A stretch of DNA of 48,101 nt from Candidatus Kerfeldbacteria bacterium (lineage in GTDB: Bacteria; Patescibacteriota; Patescibacteriia; UBA9570; XYC2-FULL-38-9), in NCBI GenBank assembly GCA_043813585.1, contig JBDRKW010000002.1, positions 85,182 through 133,282 on the forward strand. The letters are read 5' to 3'. The notes beneath the pieces are model-generated. The model was not told where the DNA came from. It made no database searches and saw nothing but the letters and a program-made list of their open reading frames with translations. Of this stretch, positions 15,145 through 32,981 are shown in pieces (position 1 is the stretch's first letter; the number at the start of each line of letters is the position of its first letter). A program made the translations under genes and the position numbers.

Positions 15145-16326
15145 ATGATTCGTTATGGTTTGTTCACGTCCGAGAGCGTGACCGAGGGTCACCCGGACAA
15201 GGCATGCGACAAGGTGAGCGACGCGATCCTCGACGCCTGCCTGGCGCTGGACCCGCTGTCACGTGTGGCCTGTGAGACCGGCCTGAAGGCCACCCCGGAT
15301 GACGGCAGCCTGGTCTGCATCCTCGCCGAGATCACCACCAACGCGGACTTCGATCTGACGGACGTTGTCCGGCAGCAGCTCATCGAGATCGGTTACCGGG
15401 ATCCGGAGACCGAGTTCGACGTCACCAACTTCGAGCTGGTGCGGCGACAGATGCGGCAGTCCAACGACATCGCGATGGGAGTGAACGAAGGCGACGGCCT
15501 GCACGATGAGCAGGGCGCCGGTGACCAGGGCATGATGTTCGGTTTCGCCTGCGACGAGACGCCCGAGCTCATGCCGCTCACGATCCACCTGGCGCACCGC
15601 CTGTGCGAGCGGCTGACGCACTGCCGCCGCGAGGAGATCCTGCCGTGGCTGCGCGCCGACGGCAAGAGCCAGGTGACGGTCCGGTACGAGAACGGCAAGC
15701 CCGTCGCCGTGGACACGGTGGTCGTCTCGGCACAGCACGCGCCGGACGTCAGACGCATGGACCTGGAGGACGGCATCACGCTCGAAGTGATCCGCGAGGT
15801 CCTGGGCAGCTGGTTTACGCCGGAGACCAAGCTCCACATCAACCCGACCGGCGCCTTCACCATCGGCGGACCGGCCGGCGACGCGGGCGTGACCGGCCGC
15901 AAGATCATCGTGGACACGTACGGTGGTCACGGTGCGCACGGCGGCGGCTGCTTCAGCGGCAAGGATCCCACGAAGGTGGACCGGTCCGCGGCCTACATGG
16001 GGCGCTACATCGCCAAGAACCTCGTGGCTGCGGGAATCGCCCGCCAGGCGCTGGTGCAGCTCGCCTACGCGATCGGCGTGGCCGACCCGGTCAGCTGCTA
16101 CGTCGACACCTGCGGCACGGCCGGGGACCTGGACGACCGCGACATCGCCGCGGCCGTCATGGAGATCTTCCCGCTCACGCCCGCGGGAATCATCCGGCAC
16201 CTCAGCCTGTGCCGGCCGGTCTACCGCCCGACCGCGGCCTACGGCCACTTCGGCCGCACCGGCGACGCGTTCACCTGGGAGCAGACCAACATGGTCGACG
16301 CGCTCCGCTCGCACTTCAACCTGTAG
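15145..16326 (+). CDS. metK: S-adenosylmethionine synthetase
   Basis: FTSESVTEGHPDK, GAGDQG, GRKIIVDTYGG, GGG.FSGKDPTKVDRSAAY; GGAGG SD before ATG 15145; GC-rich. Confidence 0.97.
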   Translation: MIRYGLFTSESVTEGHPDKACDKVSDAILDACLALDPLSRVACETGLKATPDDGSLVCILAEITTNADFDLTDVVRQQLIEIGYRDPETEFDVTNFELVRRQMRQSNDIAMGVNEGDGLHDEQGAGDQGMMFGFACDETPELMPLTIHLAHRLCERLTHCRREEILPWLRADGKSQVTVRYENGKPVAVDTVVVSAQHAPDVRRMDLEDGITLEVIREVLGSWFTPETKLHINPTGAFTIGGPAGDAGVTGRKIIVDTYGGHGAHGGGCFSGKDPTKVDRSAAYMGRYIAKNLVAAGIARQALVQLAYAIGVADPVSCYVDTCGTAGDLDDRDIAAAVMEIFPLTPAGIIRHLSLCRPVYRPTAAYGHFGRTGDAFTWEQTNMVDALRSHFNL

Positions 16327-16465
16327 CGGACGCCCCGACAACAACAAAATGAACCGCGCAACCGCGTGAGCTGAAGACCTTTAACGGGCGCTCCCTTCGG
16401 CAAATGCGCGAACCGCGGATCATGGCCTGACAAGCGACAACCTATGCTACCGCCCCCCCAGTAGG

Positions 16466-17092
16466 GTGTCGTATGTCAAACCGCCGGACCTTGGCCACCC
16501 GGCACTCTTTTTTTGCATAAATTTTTCCTTCATGTATCATAGAACTACCCTTATTTATAATGAAGAATCTATGAGAAACGAGAGAAAACCTAGCGCTACA
16601 CGGCGTGATGTCGGAGGTGCAGTGCCAGATATGCAACAAACAAACGAGACACATATAATGAAAGGAAAAACGTTCGAACAAGATATTATTTCCGGGGATG
16701 CACCGCCTGATGCGCTTCGCGCATTCTACATTGACGGACAGGATCAAGAATTCAAGAAAAAAACAGACGATTGTTCTCGGTTCGAGCAGGATCTCAACAG
16801 GCTGATAGAACTAAAGCGGCAAAACGCCACCGAAGAAACGAGAGAGCGTATTGAAGATCAAATTACGGAAGCGCTCGGAGCAATCGTAGAAGCCCGCCGC
16901 GCGCTCAAAGAACTGCGCCAGCTTCACGAAAAAATAAAGGCGGAGCTGACTGAATTAAGTGATGAAAAAATTGCTCAAGACGGCAAAGACAGTCCGGTTC
17001 CGACAATTATGAAAAAATATCATCCGGACATAGAACACTTGAACCAGGTACTGTCTGCGGCGATGTTCCTAGGAAAAGAAGAGCTCGAATAA
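16466..17092 (+). CDS. Hypothetical coiled-coil protein (true start probably 16571 or later)
   Basis: Charged heptad-like helices; ends at a bidirectional terminator. Confidence 0.6.
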   Translation: MSYVKPPDLGHPALFFCINFSFMYHRTTLIYNEESMRNERKPSATRRDVGGAVPDMQQTNETHIMKGKTFEQDIISGDAPPDALRAFYIDGQDQEFKKKTDDCSRFEQDLNRLIELKRQNATEETRERIEDQITEALGAIVEARRALKELRQLHEKIKAELTELSDEKIAQDGKDSPVPTIMKKYHPDIEHLNQVLSAAMFLGKEELE

Positions 17093-17102
17093 CGCGTAAT
17101 AG

Positions 17103-17127
17103 AAAAAGCCCTCATCGAGGGCTTTTT
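17103..17127. terminator. Bidirectional intrinsic terminator
   Basis: AAAAAGCCCTC-atc-GAGGGCTTTTT between convergent genes. Confidence 0.85.
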
Positions 17128-17142
17128 GATTTGTGGATAAAC

Positions 17143-18414
17143 TTATTCGTACGACTGCTGGAACATCTCCTTCTCGTCTACCATCTGGAGGTCATCGCTG
17201 GTTCGCCGCTTGAATTCAAATTTATTTTCAGCAAGCGTTTTTTCAGAAACAACAATACGGTACGGAATACCAATCAAGTCATTATCCTTGAACTTCGCAC
17301 CCGGACCCATGTCACGGTCATCAAGCATAACGTCAATCCCGCGTTCCATAAATGAATTGTACAGATGCTCTGCACTCTCCATCACCTGCTTGTCTTTCCC
17401 AACCGGAATGATGTTCACCGTATACGGCGCAACCGATGCCGGCCACACCAATCCCGCGTCGTCGCTCAACACCTCAGCAATCACACCCATCGTCCGAGAA
17501 GGACCAATGCCATAGCATCCCATCACCACTGGATGTTCCTTTCCTTCTTTATCCGTATACTTATATCCGAATGCATCAGAAAAACGCGTACCAAGCGGGA
17601 AAATATTTCCAACTTCCGAAGCGGTCTGCTCTTCAAACTCATCCTTGCCGCATTCTTTACACTTCATGCCCTCTTCAAAAATCTCATCATTATATCCAAC
17701 GCCACAAGCGCATAAATGAATCATATCCTCGCCCCATTTGTTCAACGTCTGGAATTCATGTGAGTACTCATCTGTAAATGCTCCGCCACTCGCATAGGTG
17801 TAGTGTGTTATGTCACCGAGCCCAAGACGATCAAACACAACATGATACGCCTTCGTTGCTTTCTTATAGAATTCCTGACGGTCCTCTTCGGATGCATCAA
17901 ATGAATACATGTCCTTCATCCGAAACTCACGACCACGCAACAGTCCCGACTTCGCCCGTGGTTCATTCCTGAATTTCGTCTGAATTTGATAGACAGAAAA
18001 AGGCAAGTCTTTATACGAACGAGCATGCTTCGCAACTAGTGGGGTGACAGTTTCCTCATGTGTAGGATTCAGTCCGATTTCCTTATCATCCGACGTCGAC
18101 ACCTTAAACAACACATCAAAACTCTCCCATCGGTCAGTCTTTTCCCAAACCTCTTTCGAAGAAAACGCCGGCATCAAAATTTCCTGCCCGCCAATGGCAT
18201 TCATCTCCTCGCGAACAATGTTCTCGATCTTCGTTAGCACGCGCAAACCTAACGGCAGAAACGAATACACGCCCGCCATCTCCTGGTTGATAAATCCGGC
18301 CTGCGTTAGCAGCTTCGCGTTCATGCTGTCCGCATCTTTAGCCGTAGTCTTGCTTGTTTTTGTAAACAATTCTGAAAAACGAATATGCGTAGTGTTAGTG
18401 GTTAACGTCTGCAC
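17143..18414 (-). CDS. proS: Prolyl-tRNA synthetase, short form without insertion/editing domain (start uncertain: GTG 18414 or ATT 18384)
   Basis: PTHEE, YQIQTKFRNEPRAKSGLLRGREF.MKD.YSF, EVGNIF.LG, MGCYGIG..R, DLIGIP. Confidence 0.95.
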   Translation of the reverse strand: MQTLTTNTTHIRFSELFTKTSKTTAKDADSMNAKLLTQAGFINQEMAGVYSFLPLGLRVLTKIENIVREEMNAIGGQEILMPAFSSKEVWEKTDRWESFDVLFKVSTSDDKEIGLNPTHEETVTPLVAKHARSYKDLPFSVYQIQTKFRNEPRAKSGLLRGREFRMKDMYSFDASEEDRQEFYKKATKAYHVVFDRLGLGDITHYTYASGGAFTDEYSHEFQTLNKWGEDMIHLCACGVGYNDEIFEEGMKCKECGKDEFEEQTASEVGNIFPLGTRFSDAFGYKYTDKEGKEHPVVMGCYGIGPSRTMGVIAEVLSDDAGLVWPASVAPYTVNIIPVGKDKQVMESAEHLYNSFMERGIDVMLDDRDMGPGAKFKDNDLIGIPYRIVVSEKTLAENKFEFKRRTSDDLQMVDEKEMFQQSYE

Positions 18415-18441
18415 TATACTGTGCCGCGCTCATTTTTTCAA
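18413..18441 (-). promoter_or_regulatory. Probable proS promoter
   Basis: TTGAAA-17 bp-TATAGT, abutting the IS30 left end. Confidence 0.65.
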
Positions 18442-18442
18442 G

Positions 18443-19508
18443 CTTAGATTCCAACATCTAGCGCAACGATATACAATCGTTGCATATGAAAACAAATACG
18501 ACATATCGCCGCCTCACGATGGATGAGCGGGAAGAAATCAGCAGGCTGCTCGCCACAGGAACGAGCCAGGCGGGCATTGCACGGACGCTCGGACGCAGCC
18601 CGGGCACCGTCAGCCGCGAGATCGCGGGCCGCGGGATGACCGCCGCAACCTACAGGGCCCAAAGCGCCGATTGGCGGTCAGCGCAAGCGCGGAAGAAACA
18701 AGGGGCAAAAAGGAAAATGGAACGATATCCTGCCTTGCGCGCATACGTCCATGAAAAACTGAGGAAACGCTGGTCACCGGAGCAGATTTCCAAACACCTC
18801 ACAGAAGAGTATCCTGATGACATGACAATGCAGATATCTCCGGAAACAATCTATACCTACATCTACGTGCTGCCGCGGGGCCAATTGAAACAGGAGCTCG
18901 TCAAAGCCCTGCGGCAGAAACGGAAACGACGGGGGCAAAGAAAGCGGCTCCGTGGCACAGAGCAGGAAACACGGGGGAAATTGGCTGATATTCTCAGTAT
19001 TGAAGAGCGGCCAAAGGAAGTTGCGGACCGCACCGTGCCGGGGCACTGGGAAGGGGACCTCATCCTCGGCAAGTACAAGCGTACCGCCCTCGGCACGCTG
19101 GTGGAACGCACAACACGGTTTGTCATCCTTGTGCCGCTGAAGACAAAGGACGCCCCGGGCGTCCGGACGGCGTTTGCCGGGAAGATGAAGCAGCTGCCCT
19201 CCTATGTGCGCAAAACCCTGACCTATGACCAGGGAAAAGAGATGAGCCAGCACAAGTTGTTCTCGAAGGGAACCCGGATGAAAGTCTATTTTGCACATCC
19301 CGGCAGTCCCTGGGAACGGGGTACCAATGAGAACACGAACGGGTTGCTCAGGCAATATTTTCCAAAAGGCACGGACTTTTCCACGCTCTCATCCCAGAAA
19401 ATACGCGCAGTACAAGATGAACTCAATGGAAGGCCGCGAAAAACCCTCAATTGGAAAACTCCCCAGGAGAAAATGAATGAGCTGTTGCGCTAGAAACTAG
19501 AATCTAAG
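18443..19508 (+). mobile_element. IS30-family insertion sequence (ends uncertain by about 2 bp)
   Basis: Imperfect IRs CTTAGATTCcaacaTCTAGCGCAAC / GTTGCGCTAGAaactaGAATCTAAG flanking a transposase. Confidence 0.92.
18486..19493 (+). CDS. IS30-family transposase
   Basis: HTH (IARTLGRSPGTVSREI), WSPEQIS, GHWEGDL, TYDQGKEM, SPWERGTNENTNGLLRQYFPK. Confidence 0.96.
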   Translation: MKTNTTYRRLTMDEREEISRLLATGTSQAGIARTLGRSPGTVSREIAGRGMTAATYRAQSADWRSAQARKKQGAKRKMERYPALRAYVHEKLRKRWSPEQISKHLTEEYPDDMTMQISPETIYTYIYVLPRGQLKQELVKALRQKRKRRGQRKRLRGTEQETRGKLADILSIEERPKEVADRTVPGHWEGDLILGKYKRTALGTLVERTTRFVILVPLKTKDAPGVRTAFAGKMKQLPSYVRKTLTYDQGKEMSQHKLFSKGTRMKVYFAHPGSPWERGTNENTNGLLRQYFPKGTDFSTLSSQKIRAVQDELNGRPRKTLNWKTPQEKMNELLR

Positions 19509-19511
19509 CTT

Positions 19512-19534
19512 AAAAAGCCCCGTGGATGGGGCTT
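19512..19534 (-). terminator. Intrinsic terminator after tRNA-Ala
   Basis: AAGCCCC/GGGGCTT hairpin plus T-run on the minus strand. Confidence 0.75.
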
Positions 19535-19545
19535 CAAATGTCGCG

Positions 19546-19618
19546 TGGACTCGAGGAGACTCGAACTCCTGACCCCCTGCATGCAAAGCAGGTGCTCTAC
19601 CAACTGAGCTACGAGCCC
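19546..19618 (-). tRNA. tRNA-Ala(TGC)
   Basis: CCTGC-TTTGCAT-GCAGG anticodon arm; G3.U70 pair. Confidence 0.96.
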
Positions 19619-19647
19619 ATAAGCGTGCAAAATTGCACCGGAGCAGT

Positions 19648-19878
19648 TTACCCTCTTGCGAAGATCCAGTCAAGTATGCCGAAGGCCGCACCGCTCATAA
19701 TGAAGAAAGCCAGAAGAATAAGTGCGAGGCCTACGACTTTCCAAAACGTCCACGTGCCACCGGACCCAAACTTGTCTTCTGCCCATGAAATCTTACCCAT
19801 CATGCGGATCATCGACTCCGTCTTCCAGATGACAAAGACACCGAATGCAATCATTATGACCCCAATAACATATTTCAT
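19648..19878 (-). CDS. Small two-TM membrane protein
   Basis: MKYVIG...WAEDKFGSGGTWTFWK.VG..., 76 aa. The upstream part of the 135-aa ORF overlaps another gene. Confidence 0.7.
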   Translation of the reverse strand: MKYVIGVIMIAFGVFVIWKTESMIRMMGKISWAEDKFGSGGTWTFWKVVGLALILLAFFIMSGAAFGILDWIFARG

Positions 19879-19992
19879 ACGGCGTTTATTGTACCTGTTT
19901 TTCGTTCGTTTGCCTAGATTGACCGACGGCAATATGTCGTGTATATAAAGCATGCAACGGTCAACCAACCTCTGGACATGGAGGAGGAGAAT

Positions 19993-20457
19993 ATGCCGCT
20001 TCGTTTCATGATTGGCAGGATGCTGGTGGAGCTGCCGGACGACTGCCTGGCCCACCCCGGCCTGAGCGAACTGTTAGACCGGGCCGGGCCGATCCACCTG
20101 GAGCTCAACCGGCGCAACCTGGACCTGCTCGCGAGCGTGGTCGGCGACGACCGGCTGAACCTGGATGAACCTGTCCTCCGGAAACTCTGGGCGCCGGCAA
20201 TGGACCTGATCATGTGCATGCCGGGTACGAACTTCCTGAAGACCTCGGGCATCACGCACGTGTTCCAGCTCGTGTCCTACACCAGCCAGGAGCTGGCGGA
20301 TCTAGGCGCCCTGCCCCGCGTGGTCACTGACCTCAGCTATGAGCTCCGGTCGCGCGGGCTCCACCTCGGCCTGCTAACCAAGGCCGCGCAGGCAGTGCTG
20401 GCGCTCCGGCTGCTGCGCGAACGGCTGAACCGGGACACGCAAAGCGACGATGAGTAG
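19993..20457 (+). CDS. Stand-alone protein with an RNA polymerase alpha C-terminal domain-like region
   Basis: NFLKTSGITHVFQLVSYTSQEL...ELRSRGLHLG resembles alpha-CTD [22 protein letters not shown]...VLASRGLSLG; SD GGAGGAGGAG; GC-rich. Confidence 0.68.
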   Translation: MPLRFMIGRMLVELPDDCLAHPGLSELLDRAGPIHLELNRRNLDLLASVVGDDRLNLDEPVLRKLWAPAMDLIMCMPGTNFLKTSGITHVFQLVSYTSQELADLGALPRVVTDLSYELRSRGLHLGLLTKAAQAVLALRLLRERLNRDTQSDDE

Positions 20458-20479
20458 GAGGCTCTCATCGTTTTTTTTT
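20447..20479 (+). terminator. Intrinsic terminator
   Basis: ACGATGAG...CTCATCGT hairpin plus long T-run, overlapping the stop. Confidence 0.75.
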
Positions 20480-20526
20480 ACACAAAAACCGCGAACGTGT
20501 CCGCGGCCCGTTTGTGAAGCGATGTG

Positions 20527-20600
20527 TGGGCGCTGTAGGACTCGAACCTACGGCCTCCTCGGTGTAAACGAGATGCTCTAGCCAACTGAGCTAAGCGCCC
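20527..20600 (-). tRNA. tRNA-Val(TAC)
   Basis: GGGCGCT acceptor; anticodon loop TTTACAC; GGTTCGAGTCC. Confidence 0.95.
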
Positions 20601-20612
20601 TGGTGCGTTGTG

Positions 20613-20696
20613 TGCGCGAGAGAGGATTTGAACCTCCACGGGTGTTACCCCACAGCCACCTCAAGGCTGCGCGTATACCGATTCCGCCACTCGCGC
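20613..20696 (-). tRNA. tRNA-Leu(GAG)
   Basis: CAGCC-TTGAGGT-GGCTG; long variable arm; GGTTCAAATCC. Confidence 0.95.
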
Positions 20697-20748
20697 TTAT
20701 GCAGAAGGGGCATTCGCTGCCCCTTCGGCCTCATAAAAATCAAATGTA

Positions 20749-21342
20749 CTATTCCTTGACCAGCGTTTCCTTCAGCCGCTTGGTGTAGTCGCGCAGGTAA
20801 TACAGCTTGGATCGGCGCACTTTCGCTTTCTTGACTACTTCGATCTTGTCGATCAGCGGCGAGGCGAGCGGGTAGATCTTGTCTACCATCACGCCGAATG
20901 AGTTCTTTTGCACCGTCACGGTTTTGGTTTCCGGAGTCTTGCCGCGCATGGCGACCACCATCCCCTGGAATACCTGGACGCGCTCCTTTTCGCCTTCCTT
21001 CACCTTTTCATGGATGCGGATGGTCATGCCGGGACGCAGGTCGGGCAGCGCAATCTCTTCTGCTGCCAATGCCTCTTCTTCCGCCTGTTTGCGCGCCAAC
21101 TCTTCCTGTTCTGCGAGCGCCGCCTCGTCATCAATGGGTTTTGCCTCTTCTTTCTCTGCCTCTGCCGGTGCTTCTGCCGGCTTCTCGGTTGATTCCGGCT
21201 CTGATTTTGCTTCCTGTGGAGCTGGGGTTGGCTGTTCTGCGGGCTGTCCTGCCTGTTCCGGCTTCTTTTCGCCTTCTACAGGAACTTCTGCCGGCTTCTG
21301 CTCAGCACTCTCCGCTTCTTGTGGTTTGTTCTCGTCTGCCAT
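20749..21342 (-). CDS. rplS: 50S ribosomal protein L19 with long acidic N-terminal extension
   Basis: PDLRPG.TI..H.KVKEG.KER.Q.FQG...KVRRSKLYYLR. Confidence 0.95.
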   Translation of the reverse strand: MADENKPQEAESAEQKPAEVPVEGEKKPEQAGQPAEQPTPAPQEAKSEPESTEKPAEAPAEAEKEEAKPIDDEAALAEQEELARKQAEEEALAAEEIALPDLRPGMTIRIHEKVKEGEKERVQVFQGMVVAMRGKTPETKTVTVQKNSFGVMVDKIYPLASPLIDKIEVVKKAKVRRSKLYYLRDYTKRLKETLVKE

Positions 21343-21411
21343 ATTTATACTGATAATAGGTGGTTATTCAAAAAACAAGCTTTGCCATTATACTGAAACG
21401 CCCTCTATCCG

Positions 21412-22335
21412 TCAAGCCTTCAGGAATATGTTAAATTCTTCAGGAAGCGGGGCAATGAATTCAACTGGTTCGCCGGTGCGGGGATGCGCGAACGCCAGGC
21501 GGTAGGCGTGCAGGAACATGCGCGGATACTCCTTGTCCGTGGCCCAGTCCTTGGTGACATACTTCCGGTCGCCCACAATCGGGTGGCCGATCGCCGCCAT
21601 GTGCGCGCGGATCTGGTGCTGGCGCCCCGTCTTAATGCGCACTGCCAGCAGCGCATACCGCTTGTTGCGCGTTTCCAGTACGTCATACTCGGTCCAGGCA
21701 TCGCGCCCCTCCTCCTGGTGCTCCGGCCGCGCCGCCATCTTGCCGTTTTTCGTTGTTGACCGGGCAAGCTTGAACCTGACCACGCCGGTCTCATCTGCCG
21801 GCACGCCGTGCACGATCGCGCGGTATTCCTTCTGCACGCGGCGGTCCATGAACTGTTCCTTCATCTTTTCGAACGCCTCCTGGTTCTTAGCCGCCACCAT
21901 CACGCCGGACGCCTTCTTGTCCAGGCGGTGCACGATACCCGGCCGGTCCGGGTCTTCGCCCACGCCTTCCACCCCCGGGCAGTGCTTCAGCAGAAAATGC
22001 GCAACCGTCCACTCGCTCTTATCATGCGCCGGGTGGGTCAGCACGGTGTTGGGTTTGTTGATCACGATAATGTCGTCGTCCTCATACAAGATTGGAATAT
22101 CGACCGCGTCGCTTTCAGATGGCGCAGCCACCCCCTCTAAATCCACGTCCACCACAACAACATCGCCTTCATCCAGGAAGTGATGCTTGCTCACGGTTTT
22201 TCCGTTCACGGTAACCAGCCCGTGCTTCACCCATTTCTGCATCTGCGAACGCGAATGATCGGGAAATGTTCCCACTAAAAAATGATCGATCCTCCGGTCC
22301 TGATCCTCGCTCCGGATTCTGAATTCCTGATGCAT
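21412..22335 (-). CDS. RluA/RluD family pseudouridine synthase with S4 domain
   Basis: RIDHFL..SRS, NKP, RPGIVHRLDK..SG, TGR.HQIR.H, HPIVGD..Y, LHA. Confidence 0.93.
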   Translation of the reverse strand: MHQEFRIRSEDQDRRIDHFLVGTFPDHSRSQMQKWVKHGLVTVNGKTVSKHHFLDEGDVVVVDVDLEGVAAPSESDAVDIPILYEDDDIIVINKPNTVLTHPAHDKSEWTVAHFLLKHCPGVEGVGEDPDRPGIVHRLDKKASGVMVAAKNQEAFEKMKEQFMDRRVQKEYRAIVHGVPADETGVVRFKLARSTTKNGKMAARPEHQEEGRDAWTEYDVLETRNKRYALLAVRIKTGRQHQIRAHMAAIGHPIVGDRKYVTKDWATDKEYPRMFLHAYRLAFAHPRTGEPVEFIAPLPEEFNIFLKA

Positions 22336-23108
22336 TATTTTTTCTTTGACTTCTTGTGGCCGTGCTTTTTTGTCTGTACGTAAACGCTCTCTTCCAGAAT
22401 CGCCATTGCTTCGTCAGCGCTGTCCACAACCGTATAAATCTTTTTGTCTTCCGGGTTGATCGTTTTGTGCGTGATCATCTCCGCTTCGATGAATTTCTCG
22501 GCAAGCGTGCCCCAGAACTCCTTGCCCACCAGGATCACCGGGACCGGCTGCATTTTGTGCGTCTGGATCAGCGTCATGACTTCAAACACCTCATCCATTG
22601 TTCCGAACCCTCCGGGGAATGCGACAAACGCCTGCGACGGCGAGGTCAGCATGACTTTGCGGGTAAAGAAGAAGTGGAAGCCGAGGCCGTGGCGCACGTA
22701 TTTGTTGATGCGCTGTTCGAACGGCAGCTGGATGTTCAGGCCGATGGATTCGCCGCCCGCTTTGAATGCGCCCTTGTTCGCCGCTTCCATAATGCCCGGG
22801 CCGCCGCCGGTGATGACTGATAGTCCGTGCTTCGCCATTTTATAGGTAAGCTCTTCGCACATTTTGTAATACTTGGTTCCCGGCTTGGTTCGCGCGGACC
22901 CGAATACGGTGACATCTGCCGTAAGCTTGGACAGGAAGTCATAGCCATCCACAAACTCGGCCATAATGCGGAATATCCGCCAGGTGGCTTCTCCGCCGCG
23001 GAATTCCGTCGGATTAATGACTTCACCGCGCAGTTTGGCGATGTGGGTCTGTTTTTTTGCGTCGTTTGTCTGCGGGGCAGCTTTTTTGGATGATTTCTTT
23101 GCTGGCAT
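22335..23108 (-). CDS. LOG family (TIGR00730-type) Rossmann-fold protein
   Basis: WRIFRIMAEFVDG, VTVFGSAR, TGGGPGIMEAAN, FFTRKVM, PGGFGTMDE. Confidence 0.92.
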   Translation of the reverse strand: MPAKKSSKKAAPQTNDAKKQTHIAKLRGEVINPTEFRGGEATWRIFRIMAEFVDGYDFLSKLTADVTVFGSARTKPGTKYYKMCEELTYKMAKHGLSVITGGGPGIMEAANKGAFKAGGESIGLNIQLPFEQRINKYVRHGLGFHFFFTRKVMLTSPSQAFVAFPGGFGTMDEVFEVMTLIQTHKMQPVPVILVGKEFWGTLAEKFIEAEMITHKTINPEDKKIYTVVDSADEAMAILEESVYVQTKKHGHKKSKKK

Positions 23109-23177
23109 GTTCAAGGAGTTATTAATTTGCTCTATTGTACCATATTTCCGCGAAAAAACTCGCCGAAGCGGGTAATG

Positions 23178-23251
23178 TGGGCGGTACTGGATTCGAACCA
23201 GTGACCTCTTGCGTGTCGAGCAAGCACTCTAACCAACTGAGCTAGCGGCGC
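23178..23251 (-). pseudogene. Damaged duplicate of tRNA-Val(GAC), possible att site
   Basis: 23176-23244 matches 27259-27327 at 67/69 nt, but the 5' acceptor strand GCGCCGC mispairs with ACCGCCC. Confidence 0.75.
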
Positions 23252-23393
23252 GCGCCCTCGAGCAGCAATGCGCGACTCTGTATAATGTCGTGCTCTTTCT
23301 CATATTGATCCTTGACAAATGGATAATAATGTGGCAAGACGTAGCTACTTCTCGCTTGTTCCTTTCAACAAAATGTATTGGAGATGTACTACG

Positions 23394-24608
23394 ATGGGCA
23401 ATGCAAGGCAATTCTCGGCGCTCTTCTTCAACTTCAACCTAGTCCTGGTCCTGGTTCTCGGCGCGTGCGACACCGGCGACGACAACCCGTCTGACGACGA
23501 CATCGCTGGAGATGACGACACCGGAGACGACGACGATGCCACGGCTGATGACGACGACATCACCGGAGACGACGACACCACGTACGAGGACTTCATCTTC
23601 GAGCCGATGGAACCTCTCCCGGAGTTTGAAACCGTCGAGATCGTGAACAGCTGCGAGGGGCGCTGCTTCCTCGTGGCCGTGGCAGTCGCCGGGTCCTTCC
23701 CTGCCATCATCTGCGACGAGCAGATCGTATGGTACCAGGACTTCGCGGACTGCGACGGGGTCCATCCTGAAGCCGGGGTGGATGTCCGCACGATCTGGCG
23801 GGAGGGGCACCGCTACCCCAACGTGACGGTGGGGGCAGGTACTCCGTACCTGAAATACCCCCAGTCCGAGGTTGACCTCCGCGGGGAGAAGGTGTGGGAG
23901 AGCCGCATGGAGGAAGAGGACTACGGCTTCCCGCACCACCAGTTCCACCCTCTGCCCGGCGGCGGCTATGCCGGCATGGTGCTGAACGCTCGGGACGCGG
24001 AGCTGTGGGAGACGGACTATGTCCGCTTCTATGACGGAGACTCGTTCGAAGACGTCATCGAGGTCGATATCGATGACTGGGGTAACAATATCTTCCCCAC
24101 GGACGACACCGTCTACTACATCAACCGCTATTTCGGCGTCACTAAGACCAGGAAGTTCCAGAAAAATCCTTCCACGGGTGAGTGGGACGACGTCTGGGAC
24201 GAACCGCTGGTCAACTGGGGCACGGAAGGCCAGGGCATCGGCCATGGCCACGCGGCGACCAGGTTGGACGACGGCGACTGGCTGACGTTCAACAACGAGC
24301 CGGAGACGAAGGCCGTGCGCCTGTCGCTCGACGAGTCGACCGGTGTCGGCCACGTCGTGTGGGAGGAGATGTGGGCTGATCACCGCCAGGAGGGGGATCT
24401 CGAGATGATCCCGCAGTTCGGCAACGTCGAGCTGATGGACGACGGGAACTATCTCGTCAACTGGGGCTGGATCGGCAGCTTCCGGGCGCAGGTTGACGTG
24501 GTCACCGAGGACCACGAAACCGTGTGCTCGCTGACGATGTCGCCGGTGCATACGTTCTACGTAGTACGGCCGTTCCCAATCTATCTCCTGGGGGAGCTGG
24601 AGGAATAG
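23394..24608 (+). CDS. Lipoprotein with GDDD acidic repeats and an aryl-sulfate sulfotransferase-like propeller
   Basis: Lipobox VLGAC; repeated DDD linker; HHQF, GHGHAA..L.DG..L.FNN, GNVEL..DGN.LVNWG; GC-rich. Confidence 0.6.
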   Translation: MGNARQFSALFFNFNLVLVLVLGACDTGDDNPSDDDIAGDDDTGDDDDATADDDDITGDDDTTYEDFIFEPMEPLPEFETVEIVNSCEGRCFLVAVAVAGSFPAIICDEQIVWYQDFADCDGVHPEAGVDVRTIWREGHRYPNVTVGAGTPYLKYPQSEVDLRGEKVWESRMEEEDYGFPHHQFHPLPGGGYAGMVLNARDAELWETDYVRFYDGDSFEDVIEVDIDDWGNNIFPTDDTVYYINRYFGVTKTRKFQKNPSTGEWDDVWDEPLVNWGTEGQGIGHGHAATRLDDGDWLTFNNEPETKAVRLSLDESTGVGHVVWEEMWADHRQEGDLEMIPQFGNVELMDDGNYLVNWGWIGSFRAQVDVVTEDHETVCSLTMSPVHTFYVVRPFPIYLLGELEE

Positions 24609-24614
24609 TAACGA

Positions 24615-24700
24615 ACGGGCTCTGGTTTCTGAAACATGAAACCACAGCCCGTCTTTTTTTACTACCCTTTCACGCAAAAAAACCCGCCTGAGCGGGTTTT
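24615..24700. terminator. Two back-to-back terminators between convergent genes
   Basis: ACGGGCT...AGCCCGT plus T7 (plus strand); AAAACCCGC-ctga-GCGGGTTTT (minus strand). Confidence 0.75.
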
Positions 24701-24724
24701 ATGAGTATTACTGAATTTGCGTAT

Positions 24725-27193: not shown

Positions 27194-27260
27194 GCTGCTG
27201 AGTTGTTACCCGTAGCTACTTCTATTATAGCACTATATAAATATCTTTACAAGTGTCTTG

Positions 27261-27334
27261 TGGGCGATACTGGATTCGAACCAGTGACCTCTTGCGTGTC
27301 GAGCAAGCGCTCTAACCAACTGAGCTAACCGCCC
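27261..27334 (-). tRNA. tRNA-Val(GAC)
   Basis: Intact GGGCGGT/ATCGCCC acceptor; CTTGC-TCGACAC-GCAAG anticodon arm. Confidence 0.93.
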
Positions 27335-27339
27335 CCGTG

Positions 27340-27412
27340 TACTCCCGCCTGGAATCGAACCAGGGACCGGTGAGATATAAGCTCACTGCTCTAACCGCTG
27401 AGCTACGGGAGT
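27340..27412 (-). tRNA. tRNA-Ile(TAT/UAU)
   Basis: ACTCCCG/CGGGAGT acceptor, A73; GTGAG-CTTATAT-CTCAC anticodon arm; GGTTCGATTCC. Confidence 0.92.
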
Positions 27413-27430
27413 TCAAGTGCGCGCCACGGA

Positions 27431-28393
27431 CTACTTGCCGTGGTAAGCGCGGTGTATTTTTGACCGTTTCTTGCCCTTTGTCAACTCCAGGTACAGCAAC
27501 GTCCAGTTTCCATAATGCCATGCGGAGAACACTATCACGCCAAACACCACCAGCACGAACGACAGGGAGTAAGCCGCAAACGTGTACAGGTACACGCCGA
27601 CGATGGTTTGCGCCGATATCAGGAGCGCCGCTCCGAAGAACAGCAGGGGCACTGCCGCGAGCGCGCCAAACAATACGCCGAGCAGCACCACCAGGAAATA
27701 GGCGAAGAACATGAGGAACGCCAGCTCAATGGATACGCCGGCGTTATGCCGGAACAGCTCCCAGCTTTTCCTGATCGCCTCCTTTGTGCCGCTTCCCTTA
27801 ATGACAATGTCTGCTACCGCAAATTTGATGAGCATCGAAATCAGGATTGCCAACGGGGTGAGCACTAAAAATAACAGGAGCGAGATTACCAGTTTGGACG
27901 TCTGCACGTTTGCCAGAAACAGCGGCAGCGCAACCAGCGCCAGCAACAGGTACGAGACGCCCTTTCCGATCAGGTTCACCCACAGCACCGGCCAAAAATG
28001 CTTTTCGCCGGATTCCACCACCTGGCCGAGCGTGATTTTTTTCTTTGACCGCGTGCGGACCGCTTTCGCGAACCCGTCAACAAGGCCGATCTGCGAATAC
28101 ATAATCAGCACCAGCACAAATATGCCCAGCACAAGTGATGCGATCACCATGGCAGCCAGCGTCAGGTTCGGAGCCAGCGCCTGGTCAATGAGCTGCGCCC
28201 ACTGGTCGAGCTCCCAGAATTGCGGGTTAAACGGGCTGAACCGGCTGTTGAGCAGGTTGCCGTTGGTCGAGAAGATCTCGAGTTCTATTCCTTTGCCGCC
28301 CCAGAACAGCGTGAAAAAACCAAGCAGCCACAGGACCCGTTGTTTTTTTGTGACCTTCCATGATTTTTGGAAGATCGTATTGTAGAATTTCAT
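27431..28393 (-). CDS. Multi-pass membrane protein, function unknown
   Basis: About 6 TM helices; W.....LWL.G, G..HFW.V, AI..SW.LF, W.L.Y..L pattern. Confidence 0.8.
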   Translation of the reverse strand: MKFYNTIFQKSWKVTKKQRVLWLLGFFTLFWGGKGIELEIFSTNGNLLNSRFSPFNPQFWELDQWAQLIDQALAPNLTLAAMVIASLVLGIFVLVLIMYSQIGLVDGFAKAVRTRSKKKITLGQVVESGEKHFWPVLWVNLIGKGVSYLLLALVALPLFLANVQTSKLVISLLLFLVLTPLAILISMLIKFAVADIVIKGSGTKEAIRKSWELFRHNAGVSIELAFLMFFAYFLVVLLGVLFGALAAVPLLFFGAALLISAQTIVGVYLYTFAAYSLSFVLVVFGVIVFSAWHYGNWTLLYLELTKGKKRSKIHRAYHGK

Positions 28394-28415
28394 ATTCCTC
28401 CGAACTTAATGGTAT

Positions 28416-30269
28416 TTATTTTTTCCCGCCGAGCAATTTTTCGAACTCTTCTTGTTCAAGCGTCTCGACCTCGAGCAGGCGTTCGGCAACCAGGTCCAGC
28501 TCTTTCTCATGGCTCTCAAGCAGTTCGCTTGCTGCCGTATACTGTTCGTCAATGATGCGGCTCATCTCTATGTCGATCGCTTCCGCGGTCTTGTCGCTGT
28601 AGTCGCGCTGTTCATGGATTTCCTTGCCGAGGAAGATCATCTCCTGCGCCACGCCATAGGTGCGCGGGCCGAGCTTGTCGCTCATGCCGTACTGCGCCAC
28701 GATGCTATGCGCCAGCTGCGTTGATTTCTGCAGGTCGCTTGATGCGCCGGTGGTGATATCGCCGAATTTGAACCGTTCTGCGGCATGTCCGCCGAGCGCA
28801 ACCACGATCTCTGCCATCATCTCTTTCCTGGAGTGGAGCTTTTTATCCTCTTCCGGCAGCTTGAGCGTGTACCCGCCTGCGCGGCCGCGCGGGATGATTG
28901 ATATCTTGCGCACCGGGTCGGATTCCGGCATAAAGTGCGCAGTAAGCGCATGGCCGGCTTCGTGGTACGCGGTGATCTTCTTTTCCTTATCAGAGAACCG
29001 GGCGCTCTTGCGTTCCGGGCCGAGCAATACCTTGTCGATGGACTCCAGGCATTCGTCCATGGAGATCTTCTTCTTGTTCCTGCGCGCGGCGAAGATTGCC
29101 GCTTCATTCAATAGGTTTTCCAGGTCAGCGCCGGAAAAGCCGGTGGTGCGCTGCGCAATGATTTTTAATTTAACGTCCTCGCCAAACACCTTGTTGCGAC
29201 CGTGCACTTGAAGGATCTCCAGGCGTTCCACCAGGTCCGGCAGGTCCAAGACAACGCGGCGGTCAAAGCGGCCCGGGCGCAGCAATGCCGGATCCAACAC
29301 ATCCGGCCGGTTGGTTGCGGCAATGACGATCACACCGGTATCCGGCTCGAATCCGTCCATCTCCGTGAGGATCTGGTTTAGTGTTTGTTCGCGTTCGTCG
29401 TGTGACCCGCCAAGTCCGGACCCGCGCTGGCGGCCGACGGCGTCGATTTCATCAATAAACAGTATGGAAGGTGCGGCTTTTTTCGCTTTTTTGAACATGT
29501 CGCGCACTCGGCTTGCACCGACTCCAACGAACATTTCAACAAATTCCGACCCGGTCACGTGGAAAAACGGGACGTTTGCCTCGCCTGCCACGGCGCGCGC
29601 CATTAATGTCTTGCCCGTACCAGGAGGCCCCATGAGCAGGACGCCTTTCGGGATCTTTGCGCCGAGCGCTGTGAATTTTTTCGGGTGTTTGAGGAACTCG
29701 ACAACTTCCATCAGCTCTTCTTTGGGCTCTTTGAGGCCGGCAACGTCCTGGAATGTCGTGCGCTTCTTCTTCTGCTCCGGATCGTCCGCCTTTGCCTGGC
29801 TCTGGCCGAACATCATCGCCTTGTTGTTGCTGCCCTGCACCTGGCGCATGATGATCCAGAGGAACAGGATGACAAACCCGATCGGCAGAAGGATAGGAGC
29901 AATATTGACGAGGAAGTATTTCCAGCCGCTCATGCCTTCCACTTTGATATTCGTGCCCTGCAACTGTTCAGGGCTCACGCCGTATGCGGTCAGCAGCGTC
30001 GGCAGCGACTCTGACGACTCTTTGCTCAATTTGTATTCGGTCTTTGCTTCGTCGTTCAGCGTGACTGTCAGGTCAGTGCCCTCGACGACGATAATTTCTT
30101 CTACCTGTTCCTGCAGGATCAGCTCGGCCAGACGGTTGATGGAGATCTCTTCCGGCTTTTCGAACGGCGAGTTGTAGAACGATAAGATGAACGCGGCGAC
30201 CAAAAACACCGCGATGAAGATTAAAAAGCTGCGAAATGCATTTTTGGATTCGATTTTTTTCTTTGCCAT
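28416..30269 (-). CDS. ftsH: ATP-dependent zinc metalloprotease FtsH
   Basis: Two TMs, [39 protein letters not shown]. Confidence 0.98.
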
Positions 30270-30477
30270 GTGTGGACACGTAAAATTAGTGGTTGTACTG
30301 TCAGATTATACAAAAAGAAGGCATTAAAATCAAGCGCCAATAGGCGGCGTTGAGCAGGCTTGCAATTTTTCGGCTGCTCTGGTAGAGTCTTCTTTGCGTC
30401 TTTATATCAATGTCGGCGTTACGCACCGGCCCCGCAAACGTCAGGTCACGTTTCGGATAATGATTATTACATAATAT

Positions 30478-31809
30478 ATGGCCACACAACCTACCAGTCC
30501 GTCTTCCGAGATGGAAAAGCTTTTAGAAGAGCATGAGGAGATTGCCCTTCCCAATGTCAATGACGTTGTGGAAGGCGTTGTTATATCTGCGCAGAATAAT
30601 GAGGTATATATCGACTTGGGCGGACTCGCGTCCGGCGTCGTGCGTGGGCCGGAACTTGTTGACGAGTCCGGCGTGTTTACGGATTTGAAGCCAGGCGAAA
30701 AAGTGATGGCTACTGTTCTCGATTTAGAAAACGAAACTGGCGTAATGGAGCTGTCGTTCCGCGAAGCCGGCCATAAGAAGGCCTGGGACGAGCTGGAGCG
30801 CATGCACCGCGACCAGGAATTGGTGCAGGGAAGCATTATGGACGCCAACAAGGGCGGCCTGATCGTGCGCCTTGGGAATGTCACCGGGTTTTTGCCGGTG
30901 TCGCAGCTGACGGTTGAGCACTACCCGCGCGTTGAAGGCGCAAACAAGCAGAAAATTCTTGAAAAATTAACTACCTATATAGGGGAAACATTTGAACTGG
31001 TGATCCTTGATGTTGCTGAGGATGAAAGCAAGCTGATTTTTTCTGAAAAAGCAGCGCGCAAGGACGAGCATTCGGAATTGCTGGCACAGTACAGCGTTGG
31101 CGACGTGGTGGAAGGCCTTGTCACCGGCGTGGTGGACTTTGGCGCATTTGTGGAGTTCAGCGACGGGCTCGAAGGCCTGGTGCATATCTCCGAACTGGCG
31201 TGGCAGCGCATTGACGACCCGAAAGACGTGATTGCGGTTGGCGATAAGGTGAAGGCACAGATCATTTCAATCGACCAGGGCAAAATTTCACTGTCGATCC
31301 GCCGCCTACAGGACGACCCGTGGAAAGGTGTTGCGGAAAAATACAAGGTGGGCGATATTGTCGAGGGCACGGTGCTGAAGCTGAACCCGTTTGGCGCGTT
31401 TGTTGAGCTCGATAAGGATATTCACGGGCTGGCCCATATTTCCGAACTGTCCTGGAATAAAATCCAGTCGCCGGAAGACGTGCTGAAGTCGGGCGACCGG
31501 CAGAAGTTCAAGATTGTCTCTATTGAACCGGCTGACCATCGCTTGGGTCTGTCGCTGAAGCAGCTGACTGAACGTCCGGCTGCCAAAGAGGCGCCTGAAA
31601 AGGAAGAAGCAGCTCCAGCAGAAGAAAAGCCTGCTGAAGCAGCTGCGGACGCGCCGAAAGTTGAAGACGCTCCAAAGACGGATGAAGTAGCTGCAGACGA
31701 AGCGCCTGCGGAAGAAGCGGCGCCTGAAGCTACCCCGGCAGAAGAAGTAGCTGAAGCACCGAAAGAAGACGCACCTTCCGAAACCGCCGAAGAGAAAAAA
31801 GCGGAATAA
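30478..31809 (+). CDS. rpsA: 30S ribosomal protein S1 (four S1 domains) with acidic C-terminal tail
   Basis: NKGGL...GFLPVSQL; FGAFVE...GL.HISEL.W twice; E/A/P-rich tail. Confidence 0.92.
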   Translation: MATQPTSPSSEMEKLLEEHEEIALPNVNDVVEGVVISAQNNEVYIDLGGLASGVVRGPELVDESGVFTDLKPGEKVMATVLDLENETGVMELSFREAGHKKAWDELERMHRDQELVQGSIMDANKGGLIVRLGNVTGFLPVSQLTVEHYPRVEGANKQKILEKLTTYIGETFELVILDVAEDESKLIFSEKAARKDEHSELLAQYSVGDVVEGLVTGVVDFGAFVEFSDGLEGLVHISELAWQRIDDPKDVIAVGDKVKAQIISIDQGKISLSIRRLQDDPWKGVAEKYKVGDIVEGTVLKLNPFGAFVELDKDIHGLAHISELSWNKIQSPEDVLKSGDRQKFKIVSIEPADHRLGLSLKQLTERPAAKEAPEKEEAAPAEEKPAEAAADAPKVEDAPKTDEVAADEAPAEEAAPEATPAEEVAEAPKEDAPSETAEEKKAE

Positions 31810-31823
31810 TACCGCTTAACAAT

Positions 31824-31850
31824 AAGAACCCGCGGTTGCGGGTTCTTTTT
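31824..31850 (+). terminator. Intrinsic terminator after rpsA
   Basis: AAGAACCCGC-ggtt-GCGGGTTCTT plus T-run. Confidence 0.85.
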
Positions 31851-31982
31851 ATTATGTGCTGTGCCGCCTGAATAAAGAAAGAAACCCCGTTCGCATCATG
31901 CTACTAGGGGTTTCGGGTTGATCTTCTGGCGTCTCTCATCTTGAGAGGCGCCGCTTCTCCGGCCGGGGCCGGGTCAGTCGGA

Positions 31983-32981
31983 CTAGCCGCGGCGGAGGCC
32001 GGTGGTCTTGGCGATGAGATCGCACACCGTGCTGGCCTTGATGGTCAGCTCGGCCTGGCACCACACCAGTCCGCCGTCCTTGGTGCTGTTGGAGCGGTTG
32101 TAGTTGCACCAGGGCTTGCCGGAGCGCTCCGCCAGGAGGGTCACCAACGTGTCGAGCCCGAACCAGTTGGTCACGGGCTTGAACCAGACGATGATGTCCT
32201 TCTCGTTGTTGCGGTCCGTGTCGCGCGCGTACAGCACCACGTCGATGCCGTCCTCGCCCAGCTCGTCCTCGGTCGGGTCCAGCTTCGTATCCTGAGACAC
32301 GGAGTGGACGCGGAAGGTCAGGCCACCGGCCACGAAGGACTGGTGGTTCGAGATTCGCAGCGGCACGCCACCGTTGGTGTGCGTCTTCGCCACGACCTTC
32401 GGCGCGGGGCGCTTGACCTGGGCCTTCCGACCACGGACCGGGCGCTCGGTGCGCAGGACCTTGCCGCCGCTCTTCACGGGGCGCTTGGTGCCGCGCGTCG
32501 GGCGGGTCGCCTGGCCGGTGCGGGGGGTGCGGGCGACGAGGTCCTTGCGGCCGTAGACCTGGATGAAGATCTTCTTGATGTCGGCCAACGACAGCGAGGT
32601 CGGGGTGGAGCCCGCCATCTTGACGTGCTCCCACGCGCCCAGGTTCTGGTGGACCCAGATCCCGGGCTCCCGCCGGTTCAACTCCTCGTACAGCGGCTTC
32701 AGGCCCTCGGGGTGGTCCTCGCGGATCTTCCCCGTGGCCATCACCGCGGTGAACTCGCCACCCTGATCCGCGCCCTTCTGGGTGCGCGCGATCTGGATGT
32801 CGAACATCCTCCGCGGGTGGCCGTCCGAGTTGTCGAACCAGAAGTCGCGGTTCTGGCCCGGGTCGGTGAGCAGGGTGGCCGCCACTCGGGCACCGCTCTT
32901 GCGCGTCTTGAACTGGTCCTGCACGCGCGGCAGGGAACCCTTGCCGGGCTCTCGCGAAAAGTCGTACTGCTGTGCCATCAT
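31983..32981 (-). CDS. GC-rich hypothetical protein with central K/R-rich linker
   Basis: AGGGAGG SD before ATG 32981; strong C/G third-position bias in this frame; promoter at 33128-33156. Confidence 0.72.
   Translation of the reverse strand: MMAQQYDFSREPGKGSLPRVQDQFKTRKSGARVAATLLTDPGQNRDFWFDNSDGHPRRMFDIQIARTQKGADQGGEFTAVMATGKIREDHPEGLKPLYEELNRREPGIWVHQNLGAWEHVKMAGSTPTSLSLADIKKIFIQVYGRKDLVARTPRTGQATRPTRGTKRPVKSGGKVLRTERPVRGRKAQVKRPAPKVVAKTHTNGGVPLRISNHQSFVAGGLTFRVHSVSQDTKLDPTEDELGEDGIDVVLYARDTDRNNEKDIIVWFKPVTNWFGLDTLVTLLAERSGKPWCNYNRSNSTKDGGLVWCQAELTIKASTVCDLIAKTTGLRRG

Follow-up and report, generated by a model that had tools for sequence, protein, structure and literature searches.

The genome of a Candidatus Kerfeldbacteria bacterium (hereafter G000) contains, scattered among genes that largely begin without a Shine-Dalgarno (SD) sequence, a class of GC-rich single-gene units that are led by strong SD sequences, carry long leaders, and end in a distinctive type of terminator. 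Four members of the class lie in one stretch of 48,101 nucleotides (the window; G000:C2:85182-133282), where they were singled out in a prediction made from the letters of that stretch alone; genome-wide, 54 of 1038 called genes, amounting to ~4.2% of the DNA, have a GC content at third codon positions (GC3) of at least 0.8. In our estimate, it is fairly probable that these ~54 genes were acquired horizontally from unsampled high-GC, SD-using bacteria and now persist as autonomous, moron-like, SD-dependent units. The class with its coupled traits, its absence from relatives, its foreign composition, and the phylogenetic incongruence of one member, purA, are results of the comparisons below; what we infer is the type of donor, the route of insertion, and that strong SDs and terminators were selected.

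G000 is a metagenome-assembled genome of 1,174,303 bases on 22 contigs (~52% GC, 98.3% complete, 0.21% contaminated), and the nearest relatives of its gyrA (62 to 73% identity) come from Kerfeld-, Buchanan-, Magasanik-, Uhr-, and Falkowbacteria, placing it in the Patescibacteria, or candidate phyla radiation (CPR). Genes were called with a purpose-built codon-model caller, not an established program, that was trained on long open reading frames (ORFs) and supplemented with a second, high-GC3 model. Because its starts are unverified, we give figures for the untouched longest-ORF start, for a subset of 353 genes with an unambiguous start, and for decoys, which are in-frame internal start codons. 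The class is defined as called genes with a GC3 of ≥0.8, and an SD core as a match of 4 to 5 nucleotides (nt) sought in positions −18 to −4; the longest-ORF start was scored first, to keep the SD test noncircular.

High GC3 and SD sequences are tightly coupled. The main GC3 mode lies at ~0.6 (standard deviation, ~0.1), and in a genome-wide Gaussian mixture the excess forms a heavy right tail, with no second clean mode; of the two genome-wide signs named in the original prediction, bimodality and a GC3-SD correlation, the second is therefore the one that stands. At the longest-ORF start, an SD core precedes 57% of the class (53 scorable genes) versus 6 to 9% across the other four GC3 bins, and GGAGG precedes 36% versus 0 to 2%, a pattern also present in the 353 genes with an unambiguous start. 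Decoys have an SD core and GGAGG at rates of 16% and 2.2% in the class and 12% and 1.1% in the rest, such that GGAGG is enriched ~16-fold over decoys in the class, while native starts lie below chance. With a pairing free energy (dG) of ≤−8 at the longest-ORF start as the cutoff, 28/53 class genes qualify versus 37/912 others (Fisher test; odds ratio, 26; P = 8e-22). When start refinement (the best early candidate) is applied equally to all genes, this cutoff is reached by 87% of the class (47/54; decoys, 30%) and by 24% of native genes (decoys, 17%). Genes of intermediate GC3 (0.72 to 0.8) have SD and terminator rates in between, as expected of older, partly ameliorated imports, and the 37 genes that combine an SD of ≤−10 with a class-type terminator have a median GC3 of 0.82. 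An amelioration model for compositionally atypical acquired genes was reportedly put forward by Lawrence and Ochman.

The coupling extends to the architecture of the units. The median gap upstream of a class gene is 170 nt versus 22 nt for native genes, and that downstream is 108 nt versus 15 nt; tight linkage to a codirectional neighbor is found for 8% of the class versus 50% of native genes. Opposition to a flanking gene, which had been offered as a further trait, does not distinguish the class, as 48% of its members have an opposite-strand neighbor versus 36% of native genes. The GC profile stays at native values (0.47 to 0.53) up to about position −60, stands at 0.60 to 0.67 from +20 in the ORF, and drops back to the native level no more than 40 to 60 nt past the stop codon. 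Even spacers between adjacent class genes are native-like (GC of 0.42 to 0.54 in seven of eight), and the six of these eight that span ≥100 nt all have a promoter-like TTGAC box, four of them together with a T7-8AC terminator. A match to TTGAC[AT]-N15-19-TAnnnT lies upstream of 21/41 genes in the class and of 52/318 native first genes; class promoters resemble native ones, and the median distance from the −10 box to the start is 104 nt in the class versus 41 nt in native genes.

The 3′ ends are equally characteristic. A hairpin followed by at least seven T residues forms the 3′ end of 30/43 class genes that could be evaluated, versus 13/38 intermediate and 33/379 native genes. Class T-runs comprise exactly 7 residues in 22 genes and 8 in another 7; they are preceded by C (63%) and followed by A (80%) and then C (60%); native terminators (130 found) instead have T5-7 and then G (50%), with short, often bidirectional hairpins. 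The T-run is the only sequence that the class hairpins have in common. Among the 69 genomic T7+AC sites, 24 lie after class genes, 8 after intermediate genes, and 3 after native genes, with 30 intragenic and 4 elsewhere. The units are spread over 12 contigs, and their density varies: the largest contig, C20 (351 kb), holds five class genes (1.4 per 100 kb), three of them within its first 3.5 kb, and other contigs of >25 kb hold 3 to 11 per 100 kb, so that the imports avoid a large core region.

Native genes begin translation in a different setting. In 23% of 93 native first genes (e.g., those at window positions 33240, 8215, and 30478), the −10 box ends 6 to 10 nt before the start codon, which suggests that many native mRNAs are leaderless or have very short leaders; in the class, the 30 nt ahead of the start never contain a −10 box. 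Native first-gene leaders are A/T-rich, with T at −1 in 55%, and the native region from −40 to −1 has a GC content of 0.37 to 0.43. The minimum free energy of the start region is −11.8 kcal/mol in the class versus −7.4 kcal/mol in native genes. Within the window, no SD precedes ftsH, rpsA, gyrA, or the other native genes; for these three, this is as originally read. The organism's own anti-SD nonetheless proves canonical: the single 16S rRNA gene (C18:63742-65232, minus strand) has the 3′ end GGATCACCTCCTTTCT, with the CCTCCT motif kept, in a group in which weakened SD reliance is on record and only 48% of Parcubacteria were found to have an anti-SD motif (PMC9297842). That paper deals with rRNA and ribosomal proteins, not with an SD-led gene class, and G000 differs in retaining CCTCCT. 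Sixteen native genes also have GGAGG, and the strongest SD of the genome (dG, −19), a perfect 11-nt match, AAGGAGGTGAT, precedes a native gene of GC3 0.51 that encodes a 119-amino-acid (aa) protein (G000:C2:72933-73292, minus strand). This protein has a signal peptide and two hydrophobic helices and is pilin-like by eye, with no relative among solved structures. Together, this 11-nt SD and the 16 native GGAGG genes suggest that the ribosome can use SDs.

In the scheme that we favor, a promoter of native type (TTGACA-N17-TAnnnT) would drive each unit, followed in order by ~100 nt of leader, a canonical SD, the GC-rich ORF, and a strong terminator of the hairpin-T7-AC kind. Native genes would initiate free of SDs from A/U-rich, weakly structured, often leaderless or very short 5′ ends, on a ribosome that still has its anti-SD. 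Because a GC-rich ORF adds structure around the start, pairing of the SD with the retained anti-SD would become necessary: the structured mRNA of a GC-rich import would be unable to use the native entry, and only imports with a strong SD would be expressed and retained. By the same token, only units with a strong terminator would be tolerated between native operons, the terminator serving to insulate the neighbors. Some imports may supply functions that the lineage lacks or has lost, such as S-adenosylmethionine synthesis and purine nucleotide synthesis.

The four units of the window illustrate these features. They are GC-richer than their neighbors, mostly with C or G in third positions, as had been predicted: GC in 1-kb windows peaks at 0.68, 0.60, 0.63, and 0.67 over metK and the genes starting at 19993, 23394, and 32981, respectively, with surroundings at 0.43 to 0.57, and their GC3 values of 0.91, 0.84, 0.82, and 0.92 all exceed those of neighboring genes (0.43 to 0.75). 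The SDs, too, are where they had been read. metK (S-adenosylmethionine synthetase; 15145..16326, plus strand; GC, 0.67) has all three MetK domains (PF00438, PF02772, and PF02773; Pfam E values of 1e-30 to 2e-61) and is the sole genomic copy; GGAGG (15133..15137, plus strand) lies 7 nt ahead of its ATG, and a sigma-70-like promoter match (TTGACG-16-TACAAT with TG; 14935..14962, plus strand) predicts a leader of ~180 nt. The second unit encodes a 154-aa orphan (19993..20457, plus strand), with the SD GGAGGAGG (19980..19987, plus strand) 5 nt ahead of the ATG. It had been described as alpha-CTD-like, a resemblance that was not recovered: the protein has no Pfam family at an E value of ≤0.01, and its AlphaFold2 model (mean predicted local distance difference test score, 54.6) is too poor for fold comparison. 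The third encodes a 404-aa lipoprotein-like orphan (23394..24608, plus strand) with a signal peptide, an LGAC lipobox, and a D-rich linker, lacking a Pfam family and preceded by a weak SD, GGAG (23380..23383, plus strand), 10 nt ahead of the ATG. The fourth, on the minus strand, encodes a 332-aa orphan (31983..32981; GC, 0.66) without a Pfam or PHROG family; GGGAGG (32990..32995, minus strand) lies 8 nt ahead of its ATG, and a sigma-70-like promoter match (TTGACA-17-TAATAT; 33128..33156, minus strand) lies ~147 nt upstream of the start.

All four had been said to end in hairpins, and canonical hairpins with T-runs follow two of them: the gene at 19993 is succeeded by a short hairpin and T9-AC (20458..20481, plus strand), and that at 23394 by a class-type terminator comprising a long GC hairpin, C, T7 (24654-24660), and AC (24613..24662, plus strand). 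metK and the 332-aa orphan have 3′ hairpins without a T-run. A simple terminator scan of the window returned 23 sites versus 22 expected, and such a scan misses the long-loop terminators of the class. The leaders of six units, those of metK and purA included, matched no known riboswitch family. One further gene of the window (27431..28393, minus strand; GC3, 0.74) belongs to the intermediate class, and the GGAGG that had been noted 3 nt ahead of its ATG at 28393 is indeed there. An ORF of 245 aa at 9106-9843 (plus strand), just downstream of which lies the 5S rRNA gene, has a GC of 0.62 and a GC3 of 0.76 and lacks both an SD and a Pfam family; it may be an older or different type of import.

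Composition sets the class apart at every codon position: GC at first, second, and third positions is 0.63/0.43/0.86 versus 0.56/0.37/0.58 in native genes, and in amino acid usage, Lys is halved (ratio, 0.49), and Arg, Pro, Trp, and Cys are raised. The shifts in the first two positions and in amino acids speak for a long history in a high-GC genome and against an effect on synonymous sites. When all 60 genes with a GC3 of ≥0.78 were compared with 20 random, length-matched native genes (drawn from ~870 with a GC3 of <0.70), 16/60 class proteins had a Pfam match versus 17/20 native ones. The annotated members include metK, purA, purB (above the NCBIfam cutoff), and purM-, purF-, and purH-like genes, along with a FadB/J-like protein, a Na+-translocating decarboxylase beta subunit, an amidohydrolase, a LOG/PpnN-like protein, an FAD enzyme, an arylsulfotransferase-like protein, and four proteins with MopE metal-binding motifs. 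The purine-pathway genes form five separate units on four contigs, at C5:58284 (purM-like), C21:19721 (purF-like), C1:30899 (a purH-like fragment cut by the contig end), C18:200 (purA), and C18:46552 (purB). Both metK and purA are single-copy in G000. Where class genes have paralogues, these mostly belong to the class as well, several class proteins are lipoprotein-like with D-rich linkers, and by a crude rule, secretion signals occur in 15/60 class proteins versus 20% of native genes.

Comparison with related genomes indicates that the class is foreign to the order and that the family acquired the same functions on more than one occasion. The 332-, 404-, and 154-aa orphans and a 706-aa orphan were each found in 0/40 relatives, a search set that includes 11 genomes of the same family. 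metK occurs in 3/11 family genomes, compared with 18/18 genomes of two sister families, and in the metK tree, the family copies stand apart from those of the sister families, near Bdellovibrionota and Myxococcota rows. In G005, which represents a sister genus, metK has a GC3 of 0.86 amid flanks of 44% GC, and its genomic context differs from that in G000 (the two are not syntenic). The order's sister-family purA genes form one clade (16 rows, 100% support) and match their flanks in GC3; the purA of G000 falls outside this clade, beside three genomes of 7.1 to 9.7 Mb and 66 to 69% GC (52% identity; long branch; 89 in the Shimodaira-Hasegawa-like approximate likelihood ratio test [SH-aLRT]). G005 and G011, two species of one genus, share another GC-rich purA (GC3 of 0.88 and 0.93), and this xenologue is distinct from that of G000: the G000 and G005 copies are 43% identical and fall in separate clades. 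Of the two gene phylogenies, then, purA points outside the order, and metK groups the family copies on long branches.

The same association recurs in G005 (44% GC; GC3 mode, ~0.38), for which 279 kb was covered with gene calls made with the class codon model of G000. Native SD cores precede 4 to 6% of its starts, and in its GC3 tail (15/253 genes at ≥0.6), SD-like sites precede 33% at the longest-ORF start, with several clear SDs after start refinement. The tail genes end in hairpins, in several cases followed by T-runs.

These features fit an atypical form of horizontal gene transfer, a process that is documented for Patescibacteria (PMC12455944). The likeness lies in deviant GC and codon usage, patchy distribution, the incongruence of purA, metabolic gap-filling, and intermediate genes graded in the way that amelioration would produce; what differs is that no donor is found nearer than 52 to 60% identity, that most of the genes are orphans, that they sit as single-gene units without an integrase or tRNA association, and that composition is coupled here to a different mode of translation initiation and a stereotyped terminator. 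PMC12455944 has 0 occurrences each of "ribosome binding" and "codon."

Several observations weigh against acquisition from high-GC bacteria. The fraction of class proteins with Pfam matches is far below what proteins drawn at random from a typical bacterial genome should give. High-GC bacteria generally have TGA-dominated stop codon usage, and the class uses TAG 27, TGA 21, and TAA 6 times, with TAG exceeding TGA just as it does in native genes (TAA 543, TAG 235, and TGA 137). Among 5.8 billion proteins, the 332- and 154-aa orphans match only themselves; the 404-aa orphan has three weak relatives among 1.84 billion representatives, and in large protein collections the 706-aa orphan has two (72% and 49% identity), together with one marginal match in metagenome contigs (27% over 94 aa). 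The ESM Atlas yielded nothing usable for the 332-aa orphan. Even for conserved enzymes, the best identities among 185,579 species genomes are 58 to 60% (metK) and 52% (purA), with long terminal branches (0.53 and 0.79) in the two trees; no close donor was found, and GC3 values of 0.9 without amelioration are difficult to reconcile with so large a divergence unless the donors are unsampled. The three family metK copies cluster (SH-aLRT of 83 and 95; flagged long branches), though that of G002 has a GC3 of 0.33, and could represent one old gain, and the GC-rich purA common to G005 and G011 implies that GC richness outlasts at least one speciation. The T7-AC terminator, CTTTTTTTAC, is nearly absent from the genomes nearest in the purA tree (0 to 2 sites per 7 to 10 Mb), and in its strict form it was not found in the class genes of G005. 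The class also shows no insertion scars and no integrase linkage, with one tyrosine recombinase genome-wide, and a tRNA lies within 500 nt of 2/54 class genes versus 57/915 others (P = 0.77).

Near-identity to donor genes, which would have reduced the class to a familiar phenomenon, is thus not seen: with best identities of only 52 to 60% and orphans that are nearly without relatives, this is not ordinary recent transfer from a sampled donor. Repeated capture from a high-GC source, one of two readings offered originally, finds partial support in the compositional shift, the 0/40 distribution of the orphans, the 3/11 distribution of metK, and the incongruence of purA; no donor or host was identified.

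One alternative is that the class is a second, lineage-maintained layer of long-resident accessory genes whose signals are actively kept, for example as a translationally separate regulon read mainly by ribosomes free of protein bS21, by analogy with Flavobacteria. In Flavobacteriales, SD-like sites are rarer than chance, and the anti-SD, though retained, is sequestered by bS21, bS18, and bS6 (PMC9976891, PMC7797042, PMC13000453); rpsU, which encodes bS21, is typically the sole strong-SD gene and is autoregulated via bS21-free ribosomes (PMC9976891). G000 likewise encodes bS21, a candidate counterpart of the Flavobacteriales protein, and its rpsU (C20:335456-335608) is preceded by AGAAAGGGGTGA. 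Some PF01165 match was obtained in 8/21 genomes, and in 7/7 family or order genomes with PF01165, the extended SD (TAGAAAGGAG-N-GTGAT-like) is kept, with 12 to 15 complementary nt and one bulge. This conservation, which mirrors the description for Bacteroidota (PMC9976891, PMC7797042), speaks for a maintained class, as do native SDs below decoy level in the presence of a retained anti-SD, the purA common to two species of one genus, the clustering of family metK copies, orphans almost unique to the lineage, and terminators that are stereotyped within the genome. Such a layer is harder to reconcile with the absence of the four tested orphans from all 11 family genomes, with metK at different loci in G000 and G005, and with purA genes that are different xenologues in these two; the amino acid shift points instead to long evolution in a high-GC genome, and Flavobacteriales typically have one strong-SD gene versus ~50 or more here (PMC9976891). 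We regard a maintained class as unlikely, if the most serious of the alternatives.

A bolder version would make this a CPR order with Bacteroidia-like, SD-blind ribosomes, in which bS21 sequesters the anti-SD, rpsU is autoregulated via its conserved extended SD, and the ~50 SD-led imports form a translationally segregated layer read mainly by bS21-free ribosomes, a quarantine or regulon of standard cassettes that stay un-ameliorated across speciation. We find this version rather improbable. The resemblance to the Bacteroidia systems (PMC7797042, PMC9976891, PMC13000453) consists of native SD sites below chance, a canonical anti-SD, A-rich leaders, and the extended rpsU SD in 7/7 genomes. The differences from the system described in PMC9976891 are the phylum (CPR), the ~50 mostly foreign plus at least 16 native strong-SD genes versus typically one, and the leaderless appearance of many native genes.

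Horizontally acquired single genes might also come from a GC-rich mobile pool (phage, plasmid, or another element) of these bacteria or their hosts, with the units being morons or cassettes to which the element supplies the terminator. Phage morons are defined by just such features, a lone gene that forms an independent transcription unit, with a promoter and a terminator to itself, spreads by transfer, and differs from its neighbors in composition (PMC3594210), and the 44/60 class proteins without a Pfam family, the stereotyped terminator, and a multicopy IS30-like insertion sequence that inserts at such terminators add to the appeal. The class units, however, lie between chromosomal housekeeping genes and not in a prophage: around those of the window, there are no phage genes, and the neighbors are rRNA, tRNA, aminoacyl-tRNA synthetase, ftsH, rpsA, and gyrA genes. 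None of 10 orphans has a PHROG match, three proteins have no relative among IMG/VR viral contigs (scans that detect close relatives only), and the one orphan tried by tblastn against plasmids had no match. Integron gene cassettes fit no better, as the units are scattered over many contigs of a genome with one tyrosine recombinase and the hairpins are alike in the T-run alone. For these reasons, a mobile pool seems rather improbable as the source.

As to mobility in the window itself, the original statement that no integrase accompanies the genes holds genome-wide, with one tyrosine recombinase in all, and overlooks a transposase just upstream of the 19993 gene. It belongs to an IS30-like insertion sequence (18443..19508, plus strand) with a transposase ORF (HTH_38 and rve) at 18480-19493 and inverted repeats CTTAGATTC.... 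The element has at least three genomic copies, which break contigs C5, C18, and C21; four of five readable flanks are intrinsic terminators, the element abutting the end of the T-run (T6-8 and then 2 to 4 bases), so that terminators appear to be its targets, the one behind the class gene purA among them. As a vehicle of the units, it was considered and rejected, because no solo inverted repeats lie beside class genes; the copy in the window adjoins one unit, that at 19993. tRNA genes were likewise considered as integration sites, given that three window units lie near RNA genes (for the 19993 gene, tRNA-Ala at 19545-19618 upstream and tRNA-Val/Leu at 20526-20696 downstream), and were rejected in view of the lack of genome-wide enrichment. 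A tRNA at 23178-23251 (minus strand; Rfam match of 47 bits, missed by ARAGORN) lies ~140 nt upstream of the lipoprotein gene.

A more mundane possibility is that assembly or binning introduced GC-rich genes from another organism into the contigs. G000 is a 22-contig metagenomic assembly, which leaves room for such errors, and metK lies outside the junctions that could be checked: contigs from Logan runs X1 and X2 (possibly the source sample; an independent assembler, not reads) span 19791-20304, 23187-24226, 31652-32297, and 32739-33270 with 0 to 2 differences and so bridge four ORF-flank junctions of the window, with those of metK not among the pieces listed. However, 54 individual genes inserted at separate places in contigs as long as 351 kb, each bounded by native spacers that contain promoters and terminators, are unlike the product of chimeric assembly, the contamination estimate is low, and the same pattern appears in the genome of another genus (G005). 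We consider an artefact highly improbable. DNA run X4 has zero depth over some class genes and likewise over native bins. In RNA run X3, the organism's contigs reach depths of ~1 to 4, with the listed pieces on native genes and values of 0 to 1.3 in the orphan and lipoprotein 3′-half bins; contigs cannot show absence or level.

The second reading offered originally, that the transcripts are effectors tuned for a host's ribosomes and exported, has next to nothing to recommend it. Its appeal lies in SD and codon signals that differ from those of the organism's own genes and in the secretion signals of about a quarter of the class proteins (15/60 by the crude rule above, versus 20% of native genes). 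Against it, the organism's own 16S rRNA carries the anti-SD, the native pilin-like gene and rpsU use strong SDs, the class promoters are of native type, and the annotated members (metK, purA, purB, and the purM-, purF-, and purH-like genes) are sole-copy, cytoplasmic housekeeping enzymes. An RNA export system was not seen, and none is known.

The class therefore shares defining features with atypical horizontal transfer, phage morons, and Bacteroidia-type translation and lacks at least one feature of each: a donor and a prophage are both missing, and SD-led genes number far more than one. Judged by title and abstract, the papers found on SDs or leaderless genes in CPR/Patescibacteria, and on horizontal transfer in connection with SDs, GC content, and translation initiation, do not describe such an SD-led, GC-rich class. 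CPR bacteria are thought to patch a minimal metabolism with borrowed genes, and what is at issue here is the route by which such genes are expressed. If horizontal acquisition is the right explanation, the imported layer is recognizable by four coupled signals (composition, SD, leader length, and terminator type), gives an easy way to mark imports in the genomes of SD-poor lineages, and constitutes a natural test of whether structured, GC-rich mRNAs need an SD that unstructured or leaderless ones do not. Through the conserved rpsU SD, there may be a second, independent case of specialized-ribosome control, so far shown only in Bacteroidota, and if the Flavobacteriales mechanism holds here, the SD-led imports might be read mainly by a subpopulation of ribosomes, which we offer as a lead, not a result. 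Orphans with a GC3 of ~0.9 and no relatives in billions of proteins would point to a high-GC partner or pool of genes that has yet to be sampled.

In the window, the 23S rRNA gene (11289-14370, minus strand; 3082 nt versus a 2925-position model) accounts for the gene-poor stretch upstream of metK, which is divergent from the 23S promoter region. The 5S gene (9942-10048, minus strand) is separated from it by a spacer of ~1.2 kb that contains a 187-aa ORF (10696-11259), and because the 16S gene is on a separate contig, C18, the rRNA genes are unlinked. ARAGORN places a tRNA-Ile with anticodon TAT at 27339-27412. Toward the right end of the window lie two long ORFs on the minus strand, one of 698 aa at 38828-40924 without a Pfam family and one of 2090 aa at 41473-47745 that is of native composition.

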